Below are positions 3,313 to 40,257 of a DNA stretch of 42,234 nt, in pieces (the first letter of the stretch is position 1; each line of letters starts with the position of its first letter). The stretch is from Microcoleaceae cyanobacterium (lineage in GTDB: Bacteria; Cyanobacteriota; Cyanobacteriia; Cyanobacteriales; Microcoleaceae): assembly GCA_051652765.1 (NCBI GenBank), contig JBOFUV010000048.1:1-42234 (forward strand). The letters run 5' to 3'. A program made the translations under genes and the position numbers. The notes under the pieces were generated by a model. It was given only the letters and a program-made list of their open reading frames with translations, did no database searches and was not told the origin of the DNA.

Positions 3313-4746
3313 ATGAACCCTCTTCCTGAACCCCTCTTAAAACCAGACCTGAAGACCGCAGTTGAAGACCAAGAATTGTGTCTGGCACCAGAGGATTACA
3401 GTTTGTTAACCGACCTCTATCAGCTAACAATGGCCGTTTGTTATACAGGGGAGAATCTGGATCAAGCTTGGGCAAGTTTTGAACTGTTCACTCGCAGACT
3501 GCCCAATGGCTTTGGCTACTTGATCGCCATGGGTCTTGCCCAAGCTTTGGACTACCTGGAGAAATTCTGTTTCAGTTCAGCTCAAATCCAAGCCCTGCAA
3601 TCAACAGGCATTTTTTGTAACGCGCCCGAACGATTTTGGCAATTGTTGACAGAAACTCGGTTTATGGGAGATGTCTGGGCAGTTCCAGAAGGGACAGCCG
3701 TGTTTGCCAATGAACCGTTGTTACGAATCGAAGCCCCTCTCTGGCAGGCCCAACTCGTTGAAACCTACCTGCTCAACACTCTAAATTATCAAACCTTGAT
3801 TGCAACTCGTGCCGCTCGATTGCGAGATGTGGCTGGAGCCCAAGCAACGTTGCTAGAGTTCGGCACACGACGAGCCTTCAGTCCCCAAGCCTCGATTTGG
3901 GCCGCCCGCGCTGCTTTGGCGGGAGGATTAGATGGCACCTCAAATGTTCTAGCAGCCTTGAAATTGGGGCGGAATCCTGTGGGCACGATGGCCCATTCAT
4001 TGGTGATGGCGGTCTCAGCTCTGGAAGGCAGTGAAGATGAAGCCTTTGCCGCGTTTCATCGCTACTTTCCGGGTGCACCGCTGTTGATTGACACCTATGA
4101 TACAGTTGCAGCAACCCGTCGTCTGGCAGAACAGATGGGCCTCAAGGATATTGAACTGACTGGAGTCCGTTTGGATTCTGGAGATTTGGTGCAGTTGTCC
4201 AAAACCGTGCGATCGCTCCTCCCCGATATTCCTATCTTTGCCAGTGGAGATATTGATGAATGGGAAATTGCCCGACTCAAGGCTGCCGGTGCTGAAATTG
4301 ACGGCTACGGCTTGGGTACAAAACTGGTGAGCGGTTCTCCAGTCAATGGTGTATACAAACTGGTGGAAATTGCCGGTCGCCCGGTGATGAAGGAGGCGAG
4401 TGGCAAAGTGACTTACCCTGGACGCAAGCAAATTGTTCGGACGTTTAAACAAGGTCAAGTTCAATCGGATGACTTGGTGCTAATGAATCAGACATCATCT
4501 GTCAACCTCAGTCAAAGTAACGGTCAATCCGTTGAATCCATTGAACTGCTGCAACAAGTTATGCAACAGGGTCGGCGCTTACAACCGATTGAAACTCTCC
4601 ACACCATTGCCCAACGAGCGGCGGGTTCCGTGGGCAGTTTGCCATCAGACTTGCGACGGCTGGATCATCCAACCGGATTGGAGATAAACATTTCACCGGA
4701 ATTACAGAGATTAACATCCCAGACTCGTCACCGATTAGGATTGTAG
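3313..4746 (+). CDS. pncB: Nicotinate phosphoribosyltransferase
   Basis: LLTDLYQLTM, EFGTRRA, GTMAHS, LIDTYD, GVRLDSGD, GVYKLVE motifs. Confidence 0.95.
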   Translation: MNPLPEPLLKPDLKTAVEDQELCLAPEDYSLLTDLYQLTMAVCYTGENLDQAWASFELFTRRLPNGFGYLIAMGLAQALDYLEKFCFSSAQIQALQSTGIFCNAPERFWQLLTETRFMGDVWAVPEGTAVFANEPLLRIEAPLWQAQLVETYLLNTLNYQTLIATRAARLRDVAGAQATLLEFGTRRAFSPQASIWAARAALAGGLDGTSNVLAALKLGRNPVGTMAHSLVMAVSALEGSEDEAFAAFHRYFPGAPLLIDTYDTVAATRRLAEQMGLKDIELTGVRLDSGDLVQLSKTVRSLLPDIPIFASGDIDEWEIARLKAAGAEIDGYGLGTKLVSGSPVNGVYKLVEIAGRPVMKEASGKVTYPGRKQIVRTFKQGQVQSDDLVLMNQTSSVNLSQSNGQSVESIELLQQVMQQGRRLQPIETLHTIAQRAAGSVGSLPSDLRRLDHPTGLEINISPELQRLTSQTRHRLGL

Positions 4747-4837
4747 CTCAAAGACTGTCGATCAAAGATCTGTCCCGGCTGTCTGAGTGAGCCAGGATGC
4801 CTAAACCACACTGCAAACTGCCAGAACTGAATTTTTT

Positions 4838-5512
4838 ATGATGCAAATTGCTCTGTTTGGAACTAGTGCTGATCCACCAACATCAGGTCACCAAGCTATT
4901 TTGAGATGGCTTTCTCAAAAGTTTGATCGGGTGATTGTTTGGGCATCTGATAATCCCTTTAAATCGCATCAAACTGATTTGCAGCACCGCACAGAAATGT
5001 TAAGGGTTTTAATTGAAGAAATTCAAATCCCAAATGACAATTTAAATAGCCATGTCAACGGTAATTTAAACAGTAATTTAAACGGCAATTTAAATGGTAA
5101 TTTAAATCTGAATTCAAACTATAATTTAAGCCCCAATATTTCTCTCCATCCCGAACTTGGGCATCGCTACACGATAGAAACGGTGAGAAGAGCTAGAAAC
5201 TATTGGCCTGATGCAGAGTTTACCTTTGTGATTGGTTCAGACTTAATCCGACAGATCACTCAATGGTATAAAATAGAGGAGCTTTTAAGAGATGTTAATT
5301 TATTGATCGTTCCTCGACCCAATTACGAAGTGAATCTTGAGGATTTGAGTCAGCTACAGGAGCTAGGAGGAGGTGTTGCAATTGCCTCCATGATGGGTCT
5401 ACCAGTTTCTTCAACAGACTATCGCAAGGCCGGTAAAGTAGATGCTTTAACTGCTCCAGTACAGGCTTATATTTGGCGAGAAGGTTTGTACAAATCTACA
5501 GTTAAGGAGTAG
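4838..5512 (+). CDS. nadD: Nicotinate-nucleotide adenylyltransferase with Asn-rich insertion
   Basis: ALFGTSADPPTSGH, NPFK, VIGSD, VSSTDYR motifs; operon context. Confidence 0.9.
   Translation: MMQIALFGTSADPPTSGHQAILRWLSQKFDRVIVWASDNPFKSHQTDLQHRTEMLRVLIEEIQIPNDNLNSHVNGNLNSNLNGNLNGNLNLNSNYNLSPNISLHPELGHRYTIETVRRARNYWPDAEFTFVIGSDLIRQITQWYKIEELLRDVNLLIVPRPNYEVNLEDLSQLQELGGGVAIASMMGLPVSSTDYRKAGKVDALTAPVQAYIWREGLYKSTVKE
5039..5134 (+). repeat. In-frame 12-bp tandem repeat (AATTTAAAYNNN x8) within nadD
   Basis: Units encode NLNS HVNG NLNS NLNG NLNG NLNL NSNY NLSP. Confidence 0.9.
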
Positions 5513-5553
5513 GGTGCATTTAGTTTAAGAGGATGACCATCGTGGAGGAATAG

Positions 5554-6288
5554 ATGGCAGGACGTAATCAGAAAAAGGTAGCAAATCACTTTTTACAAGA
5601 TTTTAAAGTTGGGGTTGATAATGTCATTTTCTCAGTAGATTCTAGCCAGAATCGGTTGCTAGTTCTATTAATCATGCGGCAGGAAGAGCCATTTCTAAAC
5701 TTCTGGAGTTTGCCTGGAACTCTTGTTCGACAGGGAGAATCCTTAGAAGAAGCTGCCTATCGAATTCTTGCAGAAAAAATTCGGGCAAACAACTTATATC
5801 TAGAACAACTTTACACGTTTGGGGGGCCGGGACGTGACCCAAGAGAGGCTCCCAATAGTTATAATATTCGCTATCTTTCCGTGAGCTATTTTGCCCTAGT
5901 TCGATTTGAAGAAGCTGAACTCATTGCTGATGGAGTTACTGGAATCGCCTGGTATCCAATTGAACAAGTTCCCCAGCTTGCCTTTGATCACAATCAAATT
6001 TTGGACTATGGGTATCAACGGTTGCGCGGGAAGTTGGAGTACAGTCCAGTGGCGTTTGATGTCTTGCCAAAATTATTTACCCTAGGAGAGTTGTATCAGC
6101 TCTATACAACGATTCTGGGGGAAGGGTTTTCCGACTATTCTAACTTTCGGGCCCGTCTCCTGAAACTTGGATTCCTCTACGACACGGGCGTTAAAGCGTC
6201 TCGAGGCGCTGGAAGACCTGCCAGCTTATATCGGTTTGATCCAGAAGCCTTTGCACCTTTGAAAGATAAGCCTTTAGTATTTGTTTAA
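5554..6288 (+). CDS. nrtR: Nudix-related transcriptional regulator NrtR
   Basis: [13 protein letters not shown] Nudix box, [18 protein letters not shown]-terminal wHTH (FTL.ELY, NFR, GRPA.LY). Confidence 0.92.
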
Positions 6289-8603: not shown

Positions 8604-10532
8604 TTAGGGACGCTCAAAACTAGAGGGCGAACGGAAATTCAGCACAGGTTGACCGTCTAAGGCTTGACTCATAAAGTCTCGCCAAACCGGGGCAACGGTC
8701 GTTCCTCCGGTTGCATCTCCCACCAAAGGACTGTAATCATCATTTCCGATCCAGACTGCCGTTGAAAGTTGAGGGGTGTAACCCACAAACCAAACATCTC
8801 GTTCTGAAGAGGTTGTTCCGGTTTTCCCGGCTGCTGGGCGGCCAATTTGAGCCCGTGTTCCTGTGCCGTCTGAGATCACACCCCGAAGAACACTATTCAA
8901 AGATGCCACAGCCCACTGATTCAATACCAATCGAGGCTTGGGTGTATTGTCTAGCAGGATATTTCCCTGACTATCAGTCACCTGAACAATAAAAGTTGTG
9001 TCAGAATGCCACCCTTCATTGGCAAAAGTGGCATAGGCTCCTGCCATTTCCATCGGCGTAACATCGACAGAACCCAAAGGCAAGGAGATAACTGGGTCCA
9101 TCGGGCTCTTAAATCCTAGAATCCGACAGATTTCGACCACTTGATTCAGCCCAACATCTTGACCAATTTTAACGGCTGGAACGTTGAGGGAATTTTCTAG
9201 CGCCGCCCGAACGCTAACTGCCCCAGAATATCCGCCCCCATAGTTTCGCGGCGAATAATACCCATACCCGTCCCGGTAGCTGACGGGACTATCATACACA
9301 GTGGAGTCGGGAGAATAGTTCCCTGAAGCAAATGCCGCATAATATACAAACGGCTTAAAAGCAGAACCGGGCTGCCGTCGAGCCTGAATCGCCCGGTTGT
9401 ATTGACTGGTTTTATAATCTGCACCCCCGACCATGGCCTTGACAAAATGGGTTCGGGGATCAACCGCAGCTAGAGCAATCTGACCCTGATCCCACTCCCG
9501 GTAAAGCCCGCGATAGTAAAGGCGATCACGCCACTTGCTGACGACTTCTTCAGCACTGCGCTGAAAGTTGATATCAATGGTGGTTTGCACTCGCATCCCA
9601 CCTTTGAGCACGGCATCACGGCCAAACCGTTGGGTCAACTCCTGGACTACGGCTTCAGTCACATAGGGCAATTGGCTCTGCTTGAAGGAGGTAACGCTTC
9701 CCACCTTGAGCTGTTGCTTGCGAGCCGTTGCCGCCTCCTGAGGGGTAATCCACTTCAAATATTGCAGCCGGTCTAACACAACAGACTGACGTTGTTTTGC
9801 CTTTTTGTAGTCTACAAATGGGCTATAGTTTTCAGGAGCCGGAATCATCCCGGCCATCATTGAGGCTTCTGATAGGGTTAAATCAGATGCAGATTTATTG
9901 AAGTAGCTCCGAGCAGCAGTCTCCGCTCCATAAAGGTTATGACCCCAGTAAACCTGGTTGAGGTACAACTCCAAAATCTCATCCTTGGACAAAACTTGCT
10001 CGATCCGAATTGCCATAACAGCTTCAGCCGCTTTTCGACTAATGGTGCGGCGCGGTGACAAGAACAAGTTCTTGACGAGCTGCATGGTTAGGGTTGAGCC
10101 CCCTTCTACGGTCTCACCGGTTTCCCAATTTGCCACCAAGGCGCGAATCACCCCCGTTGGATAAATGCCCTTGTGATAGTAAAAGTTGCTGTCTTCGATC
10201 GCCAGAACTGCTCTTTTAAGGTGAGGTGAAATATCGTTGAGGGAAATAACTTCTCGATTGGCCTCGTCATGCAGACTCGCTAAAGGTCTCCCCTGAATGT
10301 CATAAATGTGCGTTGTCTCAGTTGGGGCGTAACTTTGCAGAACCCGAACATCAGGGAGATTGCGAAAGCTGACTGCCAATCCCACTAGCCCGCCAGCAAC
10401 TACGGAACTGGCTAACATTGTAATGCTCAGTAAGGTTCCAGCAGTGACCTTGCTGACAGATTGAACAAAGTCAAACAAACCTGACGATTGCTGTATCCGA
10501 GGCTCTTGTGGAATGGCGTTTGTTGATGACAC
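8604..10532 (-). CDS. Class A penicillin-binding protein 1A
   Basis: Transglycosylase motifs (EDSNFYYH, GGSTLTMQL, YLNQVYWG) and transpeptidase SAFK, SLN, KTG; GTG start. Confidence 0.95.
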   Translation of the reverse strand: MSSTNAIPQEPRIQQSSGLFDFVQSVSKVTAGTLLSITMLASSVVAGGLVGLAVSFRNLPDVRVLQSYAPTETTHIYDIQGRPLASLHDEANREVISLNDISPHLKRAVLAIEDSNFYYHKGIYPTGVIRALVANWETGETVEGGSTLTMQLVKNLFLSPRRTISRKAAEAVMAIRIEQVLSKDEILELYLNQVYWGHNLYGAETAARSYFNKSASDLTLSEASMMAGMIPAPENYSPFVDYKKAKQRQSVVLDRLQYLKWITPQEAATARKQQLKVGSVTSFKQSQLPYVTEAVVQELTQRFGRDAVLKGGMRVQTTIDINFQRSAEEVVSKWRDRLYYRGLYREWDQGQIALAAVDPRTHFVKAMVGGADYKTSQYNRAIQARRQPGSAFKPFVYYAAFASGNYSPDSTVYDSPVSYRDGYGYYSPRNYGGGYSGAVSVRAALENSLNVPAVKIGQDVGLNQVVEICRILGFKSPMDPVISLPLGSVDVTPMEMAGAYATFANEGWHSDTTFIVQVTDSQGNILLDNTPKPRLVLNQWAVASLNSVLRGVISDGTGTRAQIGRPAAGKTGTTSSERDVWFVGYTPQLSTAVWIGNDDYSPLVGDATGGTTVAPVWRDFMSQALDGQPVLNFRSPSSFERP

Positions 10533-22087: not shown

Positions 22088-23974
22088 CTATAGAACTGGA
22101 GCAAATCGCTCTTTTTCAGGAACTTCTGTGTATTCTGAAACAATTTGACGGAACTCTTCTCCATCTATGGTTTCTTTCTCAATTAACAAGTCAACCAAAC
22201 GGTCAACAACAACTCGGTTCTCCCGCACAATCTGGCAAGCTTTTTGGTGGCAGTGTTCAGCGATCGCCCGGATTTGGCTATCAATCCGAGAGGCAATTTC
22301 ATTGGAATACTCTGTGCGGGTCGCAAAGTCCCGGCCTAGAAAAACTTCACCCTGGGGAGACTCCAAAGACACAGGCCCCAAGTCGGACATCCCATAGCGA
22401 GTCACCATCTGCCGAGTCATCGTCGCTACCTGTTGCAAGTCTCCCCCGGCCCCAGTGGTTACTTCTGAATCCCCAAACACAACCTCCTCAGCCGCTCGTC
22501 CTCCCATGGCCCCAGTAATTCTGGCCAGGATTTGGGATCTGGAGATCAGGCCCTGATCTTCGTCGGGGATGAACCAAGTTAATCCTTTTGCCTGTCCCCG
22601 AGGGATCAAAGTCACTTTCTGGACAGGATCGTGATCCTTGAGCAAGGTTCCCACAATTGCATGGCCAATTTCATGATAGGCAATCAACCGCTTGCTTTTT
22701 CCATCTAACAAGGGGGTTCCTTCCATGCCTGCAACAACCCGATCCACCGCATCATCAATTTCCAACATCGTCACTGCATCCTTGCGACGGCGAGCGGTCA
22801 AAATCGCGGCTTCATTCAGCAAGTTAGCCAAGTCTGCCCCAGTGAAACCCGGAGTTCGACGGGCGATCGCCTCCAGAGACACCTCTTCAGCCAGCTTTTT
22901 GTTGCGGGCGTGGACTTCTAGGACGGCCAAACGCCCCTTAACATCTGGCGCATCAACGGTGATCTGCCGATCAAATCGCCCTGGTCGCAATAGGGCCGAG
23001 TCGAGGACATCAGGGCGGTTTGTGGCCGCAATGATAATAATTCCAGCATTCCCCTCAAACCCATCCATTTCTGTTAGCAACTGGTTGAGGGTTTGTTCCC
23101 GTTCGTCATTGCCACCGCCAATTCCGGCTCCTCGCTGACGACCGACTGCGTCGATTTCATCAATGAAAATAATGCAAGGGGCTGTTTCTTTGGCTTTTTT
23201 AAACAAATCCCGGACGCGAGATGCCCCAACACCCACAAACATTTCGACAAACTCAGAACCGGAAATACTGAAAAAAGGTACGCCAGCTTCTCCGGCGATC
23301 GCCTTGGCCAATAAGGTCTTTCCAGTTCCAGGAGGGCCAACAAGCAGGACTCCCTTCGGAATGCGAGCACCAACTGCCGTGAAGCGTTCTGGCTTTTTCA
23401 GAAACGTTACAACTTCCTCTAGCTCTTCCTTGGCTTCTTCCACCCCAGCAACATCATCGAACAAAACACCCGTCTTCGCTTCCATGGAAAACCGAGCCTT
23501 GGACTTGCCAAAGCTCATTGCCTGACCTGGCCCACCAGGAACGTTATTGGAGCGACGGAAGAGGAAGAATAATCCCGCAATTAGCAAGATCGGAAAGACT
23601 AGATTTCCCAAAAGTCCCCAAATTGCTCCGTCGTTTCGGGAAGGATGGGTATCAAAGCCAATATCAGAATTTCTCAGAAGGGCAATCAATTCTGGGGCAT
23701 TGTTCGGTAAATCAACTCGCAGTCGCTGAACTTGGTCGGCCAACTGGGGATCAGTTGCCTCGACAATTGCAGTTCGACCGCCATCATAAAGGTCAACATT
23801 CGTCACCCGACCTGCATTGAGGTAGTCTAAAAAGCGACCATAGCTCATACGGGTACTTGCCGTATTCCCTCCTAACTCAGCCGTTGCTGGGGCAAAAGCC
23901 CCCTGCCAAACAAAAAAGCTAATGACCAGTGCGGGTAACGTCCAAAGTAAAACAGTTTTCCAAGAAATTTTCAT
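22088..23974 (-). CDS. ftsH2: ATP-dependent zinc metalloprotease FtsH2
   Basis: MKISWK..LLW N-terminus, [27 protein letters not shown]; start placed at ATG 23974. Confidence 0.93.
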
Positions 23975-24067
23975 AAAGTGCTTGTTGCCTCTGTGCCAGT
24001 GAACCGATGTATGGAAGAAATTGAAAAACAACGTGATTGATCTGTGATCGTCAAGGTTTCTTTCATA

Positions 24068-24085
24068 ATTTTAACTAAATTTAAC
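24068..24085 (-). promoter_or_regulatory. HLR1-like (RpaB) direct repeat upstream of ftsH2
   Basis: Minus strand GTTAAATT-TA-GTTAAAAT versus consensus (G/T)TTACA(T/A)(T/A)-N2 repeat. Confidence 0.5.
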
Positions 24086-24248
24086 GTAGTTACTCCCTCT
24101 GAAGCAACTCCCTCTCCCAAAGACGTGATAAAGTGTCGTTTCTAGCAACGATGTATCATAGAATAATTCTGAATTAAGCAACAGGATTAGCTAGCAGGTA
24201 CTGTTGAGATTGAGGAAGTTCGGCTGAAGTGACTAGAGGAAGCTTGAT

Positions 24249-24264
24249 ACTAAGTTAACTTAGT
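24249..24264. promoter_or_regulatory. Perfect 16-bp palindrome between ftsH2 and the parM-like gene
   Basis: ACTAAGTT|AACTTAGT; function unknown. Confidence 0.35.
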
Positions 24265-24499
24265 TAGTTTGGTATTGAAGAACGCTTAAGTAGGGTGAGG
24301 CTTAAAGCGGTATGCTGGAATAGTATCGAACTTGAGTAAGGCTGAACTACCTGATCAATCAAGTCTTGAGCGGCTTTGTTGATCAGTGTGGACTTTAATC
24401 ACTCATCTGACAGTTTGAAGTCTCTATCAATGTTGTGGGTATAAGATGCTAGAGATCAGGCATCATAAGTTATGAGTTTACGTGAGGTAACAAGTTCTA

Positions 24500-25618
24500 A
24501 TGCAACAGATTAATCAGCAGCCGGGACAGCCAATGCAACAGCCCGCCATCAGTCCTAATGCAGTTACAAACCGACAGACCGTTACCCCTGGAAGACGTAC
24601 GATTTTAAGTGTTGATTTGGGACGAACTTCAACAAAATCCTGTGTCAGTCGTAATCCCAGTGAAGTTGTTTTTATTCCTGCGAACGTCGCTCAACTGACC
24701 GTAGAAAAAGCGCGGGGGGGCGGGTTTGAGTCTAAAAATACAGACCCTCTGTTAGACCTCTGGTTGGAGTACCGAGGCAATGGCTATGCAGTAGGTCAAC
24801 TTGCTGCTGACTTTGGTGCCAACTTATTTGGAGGAGAATCTTCAGATAATCCGTCTAAAGTTGATAATGCCCTGATTAAAATTTTCGCCTGTGCTGGTTA
24901 CTTCAAGCTCAGAGGCGATGTAGATGTAGTTCTGGGCTTGCCATTCTATTCCCAAGAAGAGTTTGAACGGGAGAAGGAACAGATTATCAGCTTGCTCGCT
25001 GGCCCTCATGTGCTGATGTTCAGAGGAGAGCAAATTACGATTGATATCAAAAATGTACGGGTGATGCCAGAGGGATACGGCAGTCTGATCTGGTGCGAAG
25101 CCCAGGGCAACAAAGAAATGTCTAACTTTGCTGACCTGTCAGTTGCAATTGTTGATGTAGGCCATCAAACGACAGATTTCTTGACCGTTGATCGGTTCCG
25201 GTTTGCTCGTGGGGCTTCCCAAAGTGAAGTGTTCGCGATGAATAAATTTTATGAAGAAGTGGCGAGCAAAATTGAGGGCGCAGACAGTCAATCGCTTTAT
25301 CTGTTAGAAGCGGTTCACCGACCTGTGGGTCAGCGGTTTTATCGCCCCAAAGGTTCGACGAAGCCTGTTAATCTTGACGAAATTGTACCCGAGTTGCGCC
25401 GGAAATTTGCTCAAGAACTCTCAGCCCGCTTGGTGCAATGGCTGCCAGAACGAGCCACGGATGTCGTGGTCACTGGCGGTGGGGGTGAATTTTTCTGGGA
25501 AGATCTGCAACCCCTGCTGAAGCAAGCTCAACTCCGGGCTCACTTGGCTCAACCCGCCCGCACTGCCAATGCTCTAGGGCAGTATGTTTACGGAGAAGCT
25601 CAATTAGCAAAGCGTTAG
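24500..25618 (+). CDS. ParM/StbA-family actin-like ATPase (chromosomal, CorM-like)
   Basis: Actin-fold motifs SVDLGRTSTK, VMPEGYG, IVDVGHQTTD, VVTGGGG, ANALG. Confidence 0.9.
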   Translation: MQQINQQPGQPMQQPAISPNAVTNRQTVTPGRRTILSVDLGRTSTKSCVSRNPSEVVFIPANVAQLTVEKARGGGFESKNTDPLLDLWLEYRGNGYAVGQLAADFGANLFGGESSDNPSKVDNALIKIFACAGYFKLRGDVDVVLGLPFYSQEEFEREKEQIISLLAGPHVLMFRGEQITIDIKNVRVMPEGYGSLIWCEAQGNKEMSNFADLSVAIVDVGHQTTDFLTVDRFRFARGASQSEVFAMNKFYEEVASKIEGADSQSLYLLEAVHRPVGQRFYRPKGSTKPVNLDEIVPELRRKFAQELSARLVQWLPERATDVVVTGGGGEFFWEDLQPLLKQAQLRAHLAQPARTANALGQYVYGEAQLAKR

Positions 25619-25629
25619 ACCGTTAATTC

Positions 25630-25672
25630 TAACCCGTGACAGTTGCGGATGACTTTGCCTGATCACGGGTTA
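25630..25672. other. Intergenic stem-loop between the parM-like and parR-like genes
   Basis: TAACCCGTGA...TCACGGGTTA 10-bp stem without a U-tract. Confidence 0.5.
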
Positions 25673-25769
25673 TTGGGTTAATCGCTGATATTGGGCAATT
25701 CTGGGGTAAGCAAAATAGGGTAAGCTAAAGTTTAAATAAAAGTCTAGCTTGACGCACCTAAATACCGCC

Positions 25770-26279
25770 ATGCTTTGGTCGAATAAAAAACTAACTCAGT
25801 CAGTTACCTTCACCGAAGATGCTGCCGACCAAACGTTGATTGAGGCAATTGAAAAAGAGCTTGCCGTTACCAAGTATCAAACGTTTAGTAACCTTTGTAA
25901 GCAGGCACTCTGGCAGTTCCTAAATATTTCAGAGGGAGTCTCCTCCCCGCCTGTTCCTCGTCATAGCGATGGCTTAGAGGGGCAAATTTATCAGTTGCAA
26001 CAGCAGCTTGTGCAGTTAGAGCAGAAAGTCTTGGCCGAAGAGTTGAACCGTTTCAATCAACTTCAACAACAGTTGATGCAGCTCACGCAACAAATCAATC
26101 AACTGCAAAGTACCGCCAGTCACCGACCAATTGTGCCAATTGTTCAGGCTGCTCAATCTCAACCCCCAGCCAAACAGTCAACTTTAGAAACTGCTCAGAG
26201 AAAAAGCGATCTTACTGCTAATATTGAGCATTCCGACCCAGTTCTTGCGCGTTTAAGTGCCTTGGTAGACGATTTTTAG
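25770..26279 (+). CDS. ParR-like adaptor (RHH-like N-terminus, coiled coil, C-terminal helix; CorR-like)
   Basis: MLWSNKK-SVTF..LIEAIEKEL..FSNLCKQALWQFL; Q-rich heptads; DPVLARLSALVDDF tail; follows the parM-like gene. Confidence 0.75.
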   Translation: MLWSNKKLTQSVTFTEDAADQTLIEAIEKELAVTKYQTFSNLCKQALWQFLNISEGVSSPPVPRHSDGLEGQIYQLQQQLVQLEQKVLAEELNRFNQLQQQLMQLTQQINQLQSTASHRPIVPIVQAAQSQPPAKQSTLETAQRKSDLTANIEHSDPVLARLSALVDDF

Positions 26280-26384
26280 ACTTTGATGGCCAAATTAAAT
26301 GATTTCTTTCGGATTGCCTGAATGGATGAAGTTCAGCGATCAGTCAATGCCCTCCGTTAACTAACCATTACAGGAGGTTGAATA

Positions 26385-26651
26385 ATGACTAGCTCTGAAG
26401 GGATTGAGCAACGGTTTAGGCAGATAGATCAGGAGTTGAGCCAGTTGAGGCAAGGGCAATCAAATTTGACGGTTCAACTAGAGAGACTGACTCTGATCTC
26501 AGTGAACCTGGTTGAAATGTCACGGGTTCAACAAGAGGAATTGAGGATATTGAGACTACAGGCAGACCAAGACCGGGTGACATGGCAAACTGAAATTAGG
26601 CAAATATGGGAATATCTACAGAGAGACCGTCCCTACGGCAGTTCAGGCTGA
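26385..26651 (+). CDS. Hypothetical coiled-coil protein
   Basis: 88 aa; AGGAGG RBS; heptad pattern ending EIRQIWEYL. Confidence 0.7.
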   Translation: MTSSEGIEQRFRQIDQELSQLRQGQSNLTVQLERLTLISVNLVEMSRVQQEELRILRLQADQDRVTWQTEIRQIWEYLQRDRPYGSSG

Positions 26652-26818
26652 GTTTAGAATCATTCCAATTGTAACCCCCCAAACGTTAAAGCTTGGGGTT
26701 TTGTTTTGAGAATTTACCCCAAATCCCAGAGCAATTCCGAAGCTAGAACTCCCTTTTTCTGCATCCAAAATGCATCCAAAACACACCCATCTTCTATTCA
26801 AGAACCCCTTATTCTCTA

Positions 26819-26890
26819 AGCCGATGGTGAGGATTGAACTCACGACCCTCCGATTACGAATCGAATGCTCTCCCACTGAGCTACATCGGC
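26819..26890 (-). tRNA. trnT: tRNA-Thr(CGT)
   Basis: GCCGATG/CATCGGC acceptor stem, TTCGA-TT-CGT-AA-TCGGA anticodon arm, GTGAG-TTCAATC-CTCAC T arm; CCA not encoded. Confidence 0.95.
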
Positions 26891-26932
26891 ATAAATTATA
26901 ATCTTAGCAGATGGGACTTTAAGTTGCCGATC

Positions 26933-27850
26933 TCAAAGACGATGTTGACGGTAAACTTGTGCAGATGCTCGGTGCAGCAACGAGTGACGATGAGCAAGGG
27001 CATCCAAGTCATCGCAGTAGCCGCCGCCAATAATTCCGGCAACAGGGTATCCTTGGCCAATACAGGTATTTAATACTTGCATCTCCCGTCGCCACAATCC
27101 AGTGTCAGTTAAGGCCAACTTACCTAGGCGATCGCCCACATGGGGATCAACCCCGGCATCGTAAAGGATCAGATCAGGCTTTACTCCTGAGAGCACATCG
27201 GGCAAGTAGTGATCCAGGGTTTGTAAGTACTCGTCATCTTCTATCCCAACGGGTAAAGGGACATCCAGGTCACTCTGTTGTTTACGAGCTGGGAAATTCG
27301 CCTCGCAGTGCATGGAAAAAGTGAAGACGCTGGGATCAGTTTGAAAAATTAACGCAGTAGCATCTCCTTGATGAACATCTAAGTCTAGAATCAGAATTTT
27401 TTCTGCCAGTCCTAACTGTTGCATCACCCGAGCAGCGATCGCTAAGTCATTAAAAATGCAAAACCCCGACCCAAAATCAGGAAAAGCATGGTGAGTTCCC
27501 CCGGCAGTATTACAAGCTAGCCCATGGGCTAAGGCTAATCTGGCAGTCAATATAGCTCCCCCCACGGCAATGCAGGTTCGATTTGCTAAGGCGAGACTCC
27601 AAGGCAAGCCAATCCGCCGCTGAGCTTTCGCATCCAAGATTCCTGCACAGTAATCCTGCACATAGTTGGGGTTGTGTACTAACTCAATCCATTCTCTAGG
27701 AGGAAGTTCTGGAGTGTGAACCTGCGATCGCTCTACAACACCATCCCGAATCAAAAGATTACACAGTAACTCGAATTTCTGCATGGGAAAACGGTGTCCC
27801 GCAGGTAAGGGAGTAACGTAATCTGGATGGTAAACAATCGGTAGATTCAT
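26933..27850 (-). CDS. Histone deacetylase family (Zn-dependent deacylase)
   Basis: HRFPM.KF, GGTHHA, GFCIFND, DLDVHQGD, YDAGVD, GGGY. Confidence 0.93.
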   Translation of the reverse strand: MNLPIVYHPDYVTPLPAGHRFPMQKFELLCNLLIRDGVVERSQVHTPELPPREWIELVHNPNYVQDYCAGILDAKAQRRIGLPWSLALANRTCIAVGGAILTARLALAHGLACNTAGGTHHAFPDFGSGFCIFNDLAIAARVMQQLGLAEKILILDLDVHQGDATALIFQTDPSVFTFSMHCEANFPARKQQSDLDVPLPVGIEDDEYLQTLDHYLPDVLSGVKPDLILYDAGVDPHVGDRLGKLALTDTGLWRREMQVLNTCIGQGYPVAGIIGGGYCDDLDALAHRHSLLHRASAQVYRQHRL

Positions 27851-34947: not shown

Positions 34948-36783
34948 TCAAAACTCTGGAACTGCGGTAGTATCGCCTTTGTTTTTAAGGGTTTTGAAGT
35001 AAGTCTGGAAGATCTGCTTTGCGACGGGAAGCGCTGATTCGGCCCCATAGCCGCCATTCTCAACAACGACGGCCAGACCAATCTCTGGATCTTGGGCTGG
35101 GCCAAAGCCAACGTAGAGGGAGTGAGATTCTTGCGACAACACTTCAGAAGTTCCGGTCTTGCCCCCGGTCAAAGGAATGGAACCATCGTTCAAACCCTGG
35201 GCTGTACCATATTGAACGACATCGACTAGACCATCGCGAATAACACCAACCATTTCAGGCGTTAGCCCTGTTGCGGTCGGTTTGGTGGCTGGAGTATGGG
35301 TTAAGGAGGCCAAGAGGTGAGGTTTCACCCGATTTCCACCGTTGGCGATCGCCGACACCATGACCGCTAGTTCTAGAGGAGTAGCCAGCAAGGCTCCCTG
35401 ACCAATGGCCATGGTTACCGTGTCCCCTGAATACCACAGCTCATCGTAAAGTTTCTCTTTCTTGGCGGGGGTGAGCACGAATCCCGAACCCCCTTCTGTC
35501 AGGCGGAGCAATTTTAAATCGGTATTGCCAATCCCTAAACGACTTGCCCACCGAGCCAGCTCATCTGGGCCAATCTCTAATCCGAGTTGATAGAAAAAGG
35601 TATTGCTGCTAAAGGCAAGGGCTTCCCGAAAGCCAAGCACCCCATAGCCATGGCCACTATTCTCATGAAATTCTAGGTTCCCAACTAGTATCGATGCAGA
35701 GGTTGCGATCGCATCCCCAGGAGCAAACTTTTTTGAACCCATGCCAGCAGCAGCGGATACAATCTTGAAGGTGCTACCGGGTGGATATCCTTGGAGAGTG
35801 CGATTGAGAAAGGGCTTGTCTTCATTTTGCAAGCTTTGCCACTGCTCATCCGTTAAGGGCTTGGTAAATAGATTGAGGTCAAACCGAGGGCTGCTTGCCA
35901 TGGTCAGCACCTCTCCCGTTTTGACCTTGAGGACAACAACTGCTCCCCGACGAGTCCCCAGAGCTTTCTCTGCTGCCTGTTGCAACGGTAAATCCAAGGT
36001 TAACTGGACTGGAGAGCCAGATCTTGATTCTTTTTCCCCTAGCAATCGTAGCTCTTCATTCTGGGCATTAATTTCAACAATGCGGGAACCCCATACTCCG
36101 GCCAGTTCTTTGTTTGCTCCAGCTTCAACGCCAAGCTGTCCGACGATCATTCCCATCGGGTACTCTGAGTTGGCTTCAAGGTCGGCTTGGGTGGCTTCAC
36201 CAATATAACCAATCACCTGAGCGGCTAAATCGCGCTTGGGATAGTAACGATTGGATTCATTGCGGACTTCTATGCCTGGAATCTCCCCAGACTTTTCCCC
36301 AATCCAGATAAATGCTTCTGGCGTAATCTGACGGCTGACGCGGATGGGAGTAGCGGATTTGTAACTGACTTGCTCTAGCTTGGCCAAAATGCTTTGAACG
36401 GGTATATTTAGCACTTTGCTCAACTGGGGTGCAATCACTCGCCATTGTGATTCAGTCTGTTCCTTCGGCCAGAGATAAACTGATCGAGTCATTCTATTTG
36501 CGGCTAGGGGTTGATTGTTGCGATCGCGAATCTCCCCTCGGTTGGCGGGAATGGGGACGAGTCGCACACGATTTTCCTCTGCCCGTTGCCTGTTTTCTCC
36601 GCCCTGAATCAGTTGTAACTGGGCCAAACGATGAACGTGGAGACCCATGGCTGTCGTCGCCAACACCATCATTAGAAAAGCTCGATAGACTAGGTTGGGC
36701 CTTGCTGGAATAGATTGACCTAAGCTGATCTGAGCTTGTTTGATAGATCGTTCTTCAGAGTCAAATGACAGTTGGCGTACCAT
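34948..36783 (-). CDS. mrdA: Penicillin-binding protein 2 (class B)
   Basis: RGEI.DRN, RYYP, YPPGSTFK, SSN.FFY, AIGQG, KTGT. Confidence 0.93.
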   Translation of the reverse strand: MVRQLSFDSEERSIKQAQISLGQSIPARPNLVYRAFLMMVLATTAMGLHVHRLAQLQLIQGGENRQRAEENRVRLVPIPANRGEIRDRNNQPLAANRMTRSVYLWPKEQTESQWRVIAPQLSKVLNIPVQSILAKLEQVSYKSATPIRVSRQITPEAFIWIGEKSGEIPGIEVRNESNRYYPKRDLAAQVIGYIGEATQADLEANSEYPMGMIVGQLGVEAGANKELAGVWGSRIVEINAQNEELRLLGEKESRSGSPVQLTLDLPLQQAAEKALGTRRGAVVVLKVKTGEVLTMASSPRFDLNLFTKPLTDEQWQSLQNEDKPFLNRTLQGYPPGSTFKIVSAAAGMGSKKFAPGDAIATSASILVGNLEFHENSGHGYGVLGFREALAFSSNTFFYQLGLEIGPDELARWASRLGIGNTDLKLLRLTEGGSGFVLTPAKKEKLYDELWYSGDTVTMAIGQGALLATPLELAVMVSAIANGGNRVKPHLLASLTHTPATKPTATGLTPEMVGVIRDGLVDVVQYGTAQGLNDGSIPLTGGKTGTSEVLSQESHSLYVGFGPAQDPEIGLAVVVENGGYGAESALPVAKQIFQTYFKTLKNKGDTTAVPEF

Positions 36784-38640: not shown

Positions 38641-40257
38641 ATGATGGATTCCTACGCTTATCTGCATCTATCACTGAACCACAACTCTGCTGTTCAAGGA
38701 GAAGAAAAAGTCCGAGTAGCAGTGGATTGGAAGATGCTATCCAGTCAGGCATTTCAGGGCTTTTTGTCTATTGCCGTTGTTCTAACGGTGTTCAACAGCA
38801 TAGCTCAATCTGCTGATGCCTTAGTTCAACAAGGGAGCGTTGGTTCAGAGGTGAGGGCAGTTCAGCAAGCCTTGCAGGCAAGAGGGTATTTTTCGGCGAA
38901 TATCACAGGTTACTTTGGCCCTCTCACTACAGATGCCATTTTACGCTTCCAAAGGGATGCTGGCTTACAGCAGGATGGCATTGCTGGCCCTCGAACCCTG
39001 GTTGCCTTAGGATTGGTCATATCAAATCCGTCAAATCCCACTGTCCCAGCACGAGATTTAGTGGGTCTGGGGGTTGGAGATCGAGGCCCTGGGGTAAGTG
39101 ACTTGCAGGGGCGATTGCGACAGTTTGGCTACTTCACGGCCAATCCAACGGGTTACTTTGGGCAGATTACTCGGGATGCGGTAGTTCGCTTCCAACGGGC
39201 AAATAGGTTACAAGCAACGGGCCTAGTGACCGAAGAAACCCTGGCAGCACTAAACTTTCGATCCGTGAGCCAGTTCCCATCACCGAGGCCGATCCCAACT
39301 GTGGGCCTAACGGTTCTAAAGTTTGGAGACTTTGGAGGGGAGGTTGGGGTTCTGCAGCAACAGTTGCAACGATTAGGCTACTACAGTGGACTGATTAATA
39401 ATTATTTTGATGCGGATACTGAGTTTGCTGTGATTCGATTCCAGCGAGATTATCGGATTCAACCTACGGGCCAAGTTGGGACAACCACCCAAGCCTTACT
39501 CAGCCGTTCAACTACGGTGATTACAACCCGACCCGTGACTCTGCCCGCTAGACCCCCAGTGACAACCTTGCCAGCCAGACCTCCGATTCAAGTCAATCCC
39601 CTGAACAATAATGTTTTGAGCTTGGGAGATCAAGGTGTGGCTGTGGGTGTATTGCAACAGCGTCTTCAAGCCCTAGGGTATTACACGGGTTCGGTGAGCA
39701 ATATTTATGACTTGACAACCCGGCGAGCGGTGATGAGTTTCCAGAGAGACTATGGCATTACTCAGACTGGTCAGGTAGGGGTCACCACCCAAACCCATTT
39801 GGTTCGGGCTGTTCCTCCCCTACAGTCCGTGTCCACCCCTCGTAACGCCTTGAGCTTGGGCTCTGCGGGAGAAGACGTTCGGCAGTTACAGCAACAACTT
39901 CGAGCCTCAAATTACTACAGCGGCCCAATTACTGGATTTTATGATCGGGCAACTCAGGTTGCTGTTGTGCGTTTCCAGCGAGCGCAAGGGATTACCGCAA
40001 CCGGAGTGACTGGCCCAACAACTCGAACCTATTTATCGAGTGCTCAGTTCACGCCAACTCCAATTTCGGCAGTTTCCTCAAATTCTCTGAGTCTGTCTTC
40101 TCAGAGTATTCAAGACATTCAAGAGCGCTTACGAACTCAAGGACTCTACTATGGGCCAATTGATGGAGAGTACAACGAGCGAACCCAGCAGGCGATCGCC
40201 CGCGCAAGAGATCTCTATGGCGTTAGTGCAGAGACGATTTTATTCGGCGGACTTTAG
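38641..40257 (+). CDS. Peptidoglycan-binding repeat protein (about six PG_binding_1 domains)
   Basis: Repeated G..G..V..LQ..L...GY....G.F...T..AV..FQ units; N-terminal hydrophobic/signal segment; no catalytic domain seen. Confidence 0.9.
   Translation: MMDSYAYLHLSLNHNSAVQGEEKVRVAVDWKMLSSQAFQGFLSIAVVLTVFNSIAQSADALVQQGSVGSEVRAVQQALQARGYFSANITGYFGPLTTDAILRFQRDAGLQQDGIAGPRTLVALGLVISNPSNPTVPARDLVGLGVGDRGPGVSDLQGRLRQFGYFTANPTGYFGQITRDAVVRFQRANRLQATGLVTEETLAALNFRSVSQFPSPRPIPTVGLTVLKFGDFGGEVGVLQQQLQRLGYYSGLINNYFDADTEFAVIRFQRDYRIQPTGQVGTTTQALLSRSTTVITTRPVTLPARPPVTTLPARPPIQVNPLNNNVLSLGDQGVAVGVLQQRLQALGYYTGSVSNIYDLTTRRAVMSFQRDYGITQTGQVGVTTQTHLVRAVPPLQSVSTPRNALSLGSAGEDVRQLQQQLRASNYYSGPITGFYDRATQVAVVRFQRAQGITATGVTGPTTRTYLSSAQFTPTPISAVSSNSLSLSSQSIQDIQERLRTQGLYYGPIDGEYNERTQQAIARARDLYGVSAETILFGGL

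Follow-up and report, generated by a model that had tools for sequence, protein, structure and literature searches.

The window analyzed here is the whole of contig C48 (JBOFUV010000048.1; 42,234 nt) of assembly GCA_051652765.1, which comprises 5.04 Mb in 158 contigs and is 99.97% complete. It carries a gene for an actin-fold ATPase followed, on the same strand, by a gene for a small adaptor protein (Table 1). The contig also contains tyrS, enolase, holB, and a tRNA, and based on this housekeeping gene content we infer that the pair is chromosomal, the replicon being assigned in this way for an assembly in 158 contigs. Positions 3313 to 6288 hold an ordinary NAD salvage cluster, consisting of nicotinate phosphoribosyltransferase, a nucleotidyltransferase, and an NrtR regulator by Pfam. 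A genome search found hetR, DUF5357 (which we take to be FraD), and mreB. The nearest named relatives are Microcoleaceae/Oscillatoriales, with 95% and 89% for two metagenome-assembled genomes of the same genus and 73 to 87% for Lyngbya, Limnoraphis, Arthrospira, Limnospira, and Planktothrix. Judging by these genes and relatives, from which its morphology is deduced, the host is a filamentous, non-heterocystous, Microcoleaceae-type cyanobacterium within the published range of CorMR.

Table 1. Features of the corM-corR locus (positions in the window)
Feature	Positions	Strand	Basis
ftsH, divergent neighbor, likely start 23971	22088..24031	-	conserved context
Divergent promoter region, no iteron array	24032..24499	.	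repeat and promoter searches
corM/fcmB, actin-fold ATPase, 372 aa	24500..25618	+	NCBIfam, PDB match, codon differences
Q/P-rich N-terminal extension of CorM, ~33 residues, putatively disordered	24500..24598	+	composition, alignment
corM-corR spacer, 151 bp	25619..25769	+	gap measured per locus
Predicted RNA hairpin directly after corM stop, no U-tract	25622..25682	+	folding, shuffles
corR/fcmC adaptor, 169 aa	25770..26279	+	NCBIfam match; start set by homologues
Aromatic/basic tip of CorR, 10 residues, at Anabaena membrane-anchor position	25770..25799	+	conservation; low helical moment
C-terminal amphipathic helix of CorR ending DDF, likely CorM-binding	26238..26276	+	model, conservation, Anabaena deletion
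88-aa coiled-coil-like ORF, no family, outside the system	26385..26651	+	no Pfam match
tRNA-Thr(CGT), chance neighbor	26819..26890	-	540 bp downstream of pair

Two published systems resemble this pair: CorMR of Anabaena sp. PCC 7120 (Springstein et al., bioRxiv 10.1101/2025.06.27.661541; PDB 9RMI) and FcmB/FcmC of Nostoc punctiforme (Nguyen et al., mSphere 2025, PMC12645912; NCBIfam NF052678 and NF052682). These are two names for one system. The window actin scores 647 bits against FcmB (NF052678), for which the cut-off is 300, and the solved CorM structure 9RMI is its sole PDB sequence match (E = 4.2e-148, residues 23 to 370). The original prediction, made from the sequence without database searches, had described an intact actin-fold ATPase with a Q/P-rich N terminus, and this description holds. 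The product has the Pfam domains ALP_N and MreB-like_C, and its actin motifs at residues 39 (DLGRT), 190 (PEG), 218, and 325 are intact. Residues 1 to 33, which precede the first actin strand, contain 13 Q/P, and the DLG motif is preceded by 37 residues, versus 3 to 6 in the four plasmid ParMs in which the motif was found.

A phylogeny including plasmid ParM and Anabaena CorM had been proposed as a check on this prediction. In our trees, the window protein is set with the chromosomal CorMs, a long branch leads to the plasmid ParMs, and it falls inside the Microcoleaceae CorM group with support of 98/98. It is 65% identical to Nostoc CorM and 21 to 26% identical to five plasmid ParMs. CorM was found in 24 of 24 members of the family and in 16 of 16 in a second sample, with one strong copy in each, which argues for vertical inheritance. 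Relative to its nearest relative, corM has 167 synonymous and 17 non-synonymous codon differences, indicating purifying selection, and the GC and GC3 of the pair are like those of the flanking housekeeping genes. By these comparisons, corM qualifies as an old, selected chromosomal gene. Based on the FcmB and FcmC (see below) equivalog cut-offs, the 9RMI match, the tree, and the occurrence throughout the family, the predicted domesticated, CorMR-type system is borne out, and we assign the pair as a direct orthologue of CorMR/FcmBC. The locus itself is thus not new, but one more orthologue of a system described twice in 2025. Oscillatoriales copies are already listed in the preprint (10.1101/2025.06.27.661541), and our literature search found no experiment on any Microcoleaceae copy.

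The surroundings of the pair bear on whether it could be the relic of a plasmid that integrated beside a tRNA. The tRNA does lie close downstream, with an orphan, repeated ORF between: the 88-aa ORF has a 65% paralogue on contig C13 and is absent from the relatives' loci. The original prediction, which placed the pair between ftsH2 and a tRNA, was right about both neighbors but had missed this ORF. However, none of the 32 related loci has a tRNA downstream of the pair, so the tRNA was rejected as an integration site, whereas divergent ftsH lies upstream of corM in 23 of these 32, and the same arrangement occurs in 11 of the 22 loci examined in other orders. Pfam, run on the 30 main ORFs of 57 (≥80 aa; the remainder are mostly short overlapping frames), found no rep, tra, or integrase gene, as predicted. 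Together with the presence of the pair throughout the family, the excess of synonymous differences, and the housekeeping-like GC, this synteny refutes the plasmid relic, which we give practically no weight. The ftsH gene is conserved context, and nothing points to a role for it in the CorMR system; the genome has five strong ftsH matches, and the label ftsH2 is tentative. The original prediction had also pointed to cell wall genes in the window. These are present (PBP1A type, 8604 to 10532; PBP2 type, 34948 to 36783; CofD/YvcK family, 1024 to 2454; peptidoglycan-binding, 38641 to 40257) at 9 to 22 kb from the pair, but the context does not stand: in four closed genomes, corM is separated from the nearest PBP1A or PBP2 orthologue by 0.19 Mb or more, and in a fifth relative these orthologues are on contigs other than that of corM. 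Since the PBP1A and PBP2 orthologues are unlinked to corM in all five relatives, we rejected a cell wall gene cluster and attribute the proximity to chance.

The adaptor, CorR, scores 160.6 bits against FcmC (NF052682), where the cut-off is 90. Its longest ORF would begin with a TTG at 25749, but this start was rejected because the homologues begin at the ATG at 25770, which gives the N terminus MLWSNKK that had been predicted. An AlphaFold model from a 32-row alignment (mean pLDDT, 64.5) has an extended segment, helices at residues 18 to 33 and 39 to 54, a long helix at 69 to 117 in which 16 of 49 residues are Q, and a last helix at 157 to 166 before the terminal DDF. The two latter helices correspond to the Q-rich coiled coil and C-terminal helix of the original prediction. 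At the C terminus, D156, P157, R161, L162, and D168 are nearly invariant and F169 is invariant. Deletion of the C-terminal helix of Anabaena CorR is reported to abolish CorM binding (10.1101/2025.06.27.661541), and by analogy this helix of the window CorR likely binds CorM.

The N-terminal part of CorR was compared with the RHH fold. Foldseek gave no match at E ≤ 0.001, and VIA-align gave only coiled coils, with Z ≤ 5.6. The single-sequence model of residues 1 to 60 is one long helix. A profile search of the PDB with CorR returned coiled-coil matches only, and of the 91 Pfam matches for 32 CorR members, the 25 listed were all to coiled-coil families. None of these results argues against an RHH fold. 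The helix-loop-helix part is strongly conserved, with F39, C43, K44, L47, and L51 invariant. Residues 1 to 55 have a net charge of -2, and the predicted strand TQSVTF is without a basic residue; the equivalent N-domain of plasmid partners has a net charge of 0 to +7 in six of seven.

Descent from ParMR and the conserved helix-loop-helix would fit a pair that still acts on DNA, in which CorR binds a chromosomal site and CorM segregates or positions chromosomes, or in which CorR autoregulates. However, the acidic N-domain and its strand without basic residues stand against this, as does the finding that, when the upstream gap and the spacer were searched for repeats, only two-copy repeats of 9 to 15 nt and no iteron array emerged, in agreement with the predicted lack of a parC-like array. 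Anabaena CorR bound neither its own promoter nor E. coli parC in the EMSA reported in the preprint (10.1101/2025.06.27.661541). In both Anabaena and N. punctiforme, deletion is described as causing loss of rod shape with no visible DNA defect, the nucleoids being normal (10.1101/2025.06.27.661541; PMC12645912). Given the missing array, the acidic N-domain, and the negative EMSA and DAPI results in orthologues, DNA segregation by the window pair is unlikely, and we consider any of these actions on DNA very improbable.

The extreme N terminus of CorR, 10 residues that precede the predicted strand, is an aromatic/basic tip. W or F is present at positions 2 to 4 in 39 of 41 distinct CorR orthologues, and at least two K/R are present in all 41, which indicates that the tip is under constraint. 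An amphipathic-helix prediction had been proposed as a check on the adaptor, and here the outcome was negative: over residues 1 to 11, the hydrophobic moment is 0.14, which ranks at the 18th percentile among 3,108 N termini in the genome, versus 0.54 (95th percentile) for the Nostocaceae tip. The low value holds on two hydrophobicity scales and six window lengths. The moment is below 0.3 in 30 of the 41 orthologues, and only the two Nostocaceae reach 0.5; among 11 further members of family f7, which we take to be Nostocaceae, it is 0.54 in 10 and 0.46 in one. The tip tryptophan is one position earlier than in Nostocaceae and faces away from the remaining hydrophobic side. The family is not uniform, since values of 0.44 to 0.45 occur among Lyngbya/Limnoraphis tips.

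In Anabaena, the N-terminal amphipathic helix of CorR is a proven membrane anchor (10.1101/2025.06.27.661541). Because the window tip scores poorly as an amphipathic helix, membrane anchoring is less certain here than in Anabaena. The low moment would fit a cortical shape filament that is tethered through a protein partner, such as a division or wall protein, with a CorR tip that is not itself lipid binding. In other orders, moreover, the adaptor is kept although 18 of 21 lack the aromatic tip, as do 10 of 10 in the Gloeomargaritaceae order, and Anabaena CorR is reported to interact with Cdv3 and MinC in two-hybrid assays (10.1101/2025.06.27.661541). Against such a tether, the window tip matches the Anabaena anchor in length and place and keeps its aromatic and basic residues, and the preprint, using Amphipaseek, predicted helices in Oscillatoriales CorRs, where it described the helix as less conserved (10.1101/2025.06.27.661541). 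Since another predictor called these helices, the case for membrane binding is lowered but not removed. We regard a protein tether in place of lipid binding as unlikely, and the tip itself likely binds the membrane, as its conserved residues suggest.

MinC differs as well. The preprint describes the MinC extension that controls CorM as unique to Nostocales (10.1101/2025.06.27.661541). In the window genome, the minC open frame spans 329 codons; read from its first ATG, it encodes 273 aa and lacks the N-terminal extension and CorM-binding helix that two Nostocaceae MinCs have. Of the Microcoleaceae-type MinCs, three others are likewise short. Both an amphipathic CorR helix and a long MinC were looked for and neither was found, which places the window pair in the FcmB/FcmC clade but outside the Anabaena subtype.

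Membrane-bound filaments require the adaptor in both studied species (10.1101/2025.06.27.661541; PMC12645912), and Anabaena CorM is reported to form antiparallel double filaments that are ATP driven and dynamically unstable (10.1101/2025.06.27.661541). By analogy with these two orthologues, filament function, CorR-CorM binding, loss of DNA binding, and a shape phenotype are likely for the window pair, which probably works as the cortical shape filament of Anabaena and Nostoc does and not as a DNA mover. CorM would polymerize with ATP into antiparallel double filaments, the last helix of CorR would capture CorM, and the CorR tip would hold the filaments beneath the cell membrane. Cell width and shape would be set by these cortical filaments, directly or via wall synthesis. 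The anchor is likely lineage specific, with a short Leu-Trp tip and two lysines sitting at the membrane interface, twice over in a CorR dimer, in place of a true amphipathic helix. Clearing of filaments from the poles by MinC is likely absent here, since the MinC of this genome does not have the Nostocales helix.

The two genes are separated by a spacer that varies widely between lineages: it is 129 to 892 bp in most loci of the family, 11 to 24 bp in one subgroup, and 5 to 8 bp in Nostocaceae. The predicted hairpin in the window spacer has perfect 10-bp arms (25630 to 25639 and 25663 to 25672) and a z score of -2.0, with an equally good fold in 7 of 200 shuffles, and it is single copy in the genome. 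Its closing stem recurs in Planktothrix, Limnoraphis, Lyngbya, and Arthrospira loci. The z score is ≤-2 in 14 of 23 loci and the hairpin is weak or absent in the others; loop lengths defeat alignment. No intrinsic terminator was called in the region, a sigma-70 promoter was rejected (2 promoter-like sites versus 4.0 expected), and an Rfam scan gave nothing but the tRNA. In the spacers of seven loci (L030, L031, L036, L037, L042, L043, and L045), a 12-nt motif is conserved 3' of the hairpin. It is like an extended -10 box, which suggests an internal corR promoter in those genera; the motif is not clearly present in the window spacer. In one RNA library, a contig of a relative (about 91% identical) spans corM, the spacer, and most of corR, with ftsH on a separate contig, which is weakly consistent with co-transcription of corM and corR. 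These RNA data are three small-share contig sets from one study, and the uncovered stretch at 26175 to 27000 carries no meaning. Close linkage is not universal: corM and corR are on different contigs, each amid unrelated genes, in G001 of the same genus (L025/L077), 1.5 Mb apart in the closed genome G343, and about 6 kb apart in G554. The separation in G001 indicates that tight coupling is not obligatory, and searches that keep only adjacent adaptors would miss such split pairs.

Another chromosomal ParM, unrelated to this pair, is encoded in the window genome near clpC, together with a small adaptor (L002:621-2016; G000:C99:9272-10327). This ParM has strong matches only in two same-genus genomes and is about 30% identical to plasmid ParMs. 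It is intact (88%) in a different upstream context in G002 and broken by stops in G001. Profile comparison found no likeness between its adaptor and CorR. The second pair likely stems from a recent plasmid capture of its own.

Beyond the family, the FcmB cut-off was passed in 61 of 301 genomes of a phylum sample, three of them in other orders. One of the three, G156 (3.0 Mb, 99% complete), is without hetR and DUF5357. All 10 genomes searched in its order, that of Gloeomargaritaceae, passed the cut-off, one of them being the record that carries this family label. Gloeomargarita species described so far are rod-shaped unicells and are referred to as the plastids' sister group (10.1101/2022.11.03.515036). 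In all 10 loci of this order (L094:5229-6855, L099-L108), the gene immediately downstream encodes an adaptor whose strand is basic and which has no aromatic tip; the two that were scored reach 46 and 53 bits, below the FcmC cut-off, and the CorM extension is 14 to 21 residues. In the larger genus of this order, the pair lies between an anti-sigma-like gene and pstB (labeled by sequence inspection), and its adaptor apparently contains an additional helix-loop-helix repeat. A class sample gave FcmC matches in 84 of 301 genomes, 37 of them above the cut-off and the weakest being coiled-coil noise. From these matches, 20 loci were hand-picked across families and joined with two from the phylum sample to give 22 other-order loci. 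An aromatic tip is present in 3 of their 21 adaptors (one truncated adaptor was left out), and these three, L140, L141, and L142, are strongly amphipathic (moment, 0.53 to 0.61). For two of these three, CorM was included in the tree, where it joins Nostocaceae and Coleofasciculaceae (support, 100) and not its own order, which hints that the tipped system was transferred. Adaptors of 287 to 318 aa, nearly double the usual length, occur in four ftsH-linked other-order loci (L145, L148, L158, and L159).

All tipped forms make one group inside tip-less lineages, with SH-aLRT of 91 in a fast tree, for which SH-aLRT is the sole support measure, and 79/86 in another tree; the root, placed by distant plasmid outgroups, is weak. 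The tip-less pairs of other orders, often beside the same ftsH, suggest that capture preceded the membrane anchor. It is quite possible, though we propose it tentatively, that CorMR was domesticated stepwise and earlier than published, by chromosomal capture beside ftsH in a deep ancestor, with the membrane tip arising later toward Microcoleaceae and Nostocales. The ancestral state would be a ParMR pair with a tip-less basic adaptor, surviving in several orders and in all Gloeomargaritaceae. The window copy would keep the ancestral ftsH address and the aromatic/lysine anchor, while the amphipathic helix and MinC control would be Nostocales refinements. In the CorM tree, the two genera of Gloeomargaritaceae fall in separate places, and transfer of CorM into Gloeomargaritaceae may be the alternative to ancient inheritance. 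If the stepwise origin is true, CorM was not an invention of multicellularity, and the tip-less pairs represent surviving stages on the way from DNA segregation to shape control, including those of a unicellular lineage that is in culture and has been described as the sister of plastids.

These wider results question two published statements, that FcmB is absent from unicellular strains (PMC12645912) and that capture and membrane helix share a common origin in a clade restricted to Nostocales and Oscillatoriales (10.1101/2025.06.27.661541). "Gloeomargarita" does not occur in the main text of the preprint, and our literature search found no report of a Gloeomargaritaceae CorM; part of the result may already be contained in the supplements or in a journal version, or fall under "Oscillatoriales" if that name is used more broadly. 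The clade is also described as chromosome only (10.1101/2025.06.27.661541). We found CorM-derived copies on Nostocales plasmids (L078, L079, L080, and L051) that are 53 to 57% identical and nest next to Nostoc CorM, which indicates that CorM moved back onto plasmids. The one that was scored passes the FcmB cut-off, none has an annotated adaptor downstream, and a 336-aa gene of no family precedes two of them.

With plasmid ParMRC of cyanobacteria and of E. coli R1, the window pair shares the actin fold and a small downstream adaptor with a C-terminal helix. It differs in its low identity (21 to 26%), its N-terminal extension, its chromosomal location and vertical inheritance, and in having neither a centromere array nor a mobile context. 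Like N. punctiforme FcmB/FcmC, it passes both cut-offs, has the same gene order, and occurs in a filamentous host with mreB; the demonstrations of function and of hormogonium-linked expression, however, are for Nostoc. With Anabaena CorMR, it shares an orthologous chromosomal actin with an N-terminal extension, a downstream adaptor with two short helices, a coiled coil, and a C-terminal helix, and the lack of parC repeats. In contrast to Anabaena, its CorR tip is not amphipathic (0.14 versus 0.54), the MinC of its genome has no CorM-binding helix, its spacer is 151 bp with a hairpin versus 5 to 8 bp, its host lineage is non-heterocystous, and it has a divergent ftsH, which is absent from both chromosomal Nostocaceae loci that come with 4 kb of flanking sequence. 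Microcoleaceae such as Planktothrix, Arthrospira/Limnospira, and Lyngbya would therefore represent CorMR without MinC control and with another anchor, and comparing them with Anabaena tests which parts of the system are needed for shape.
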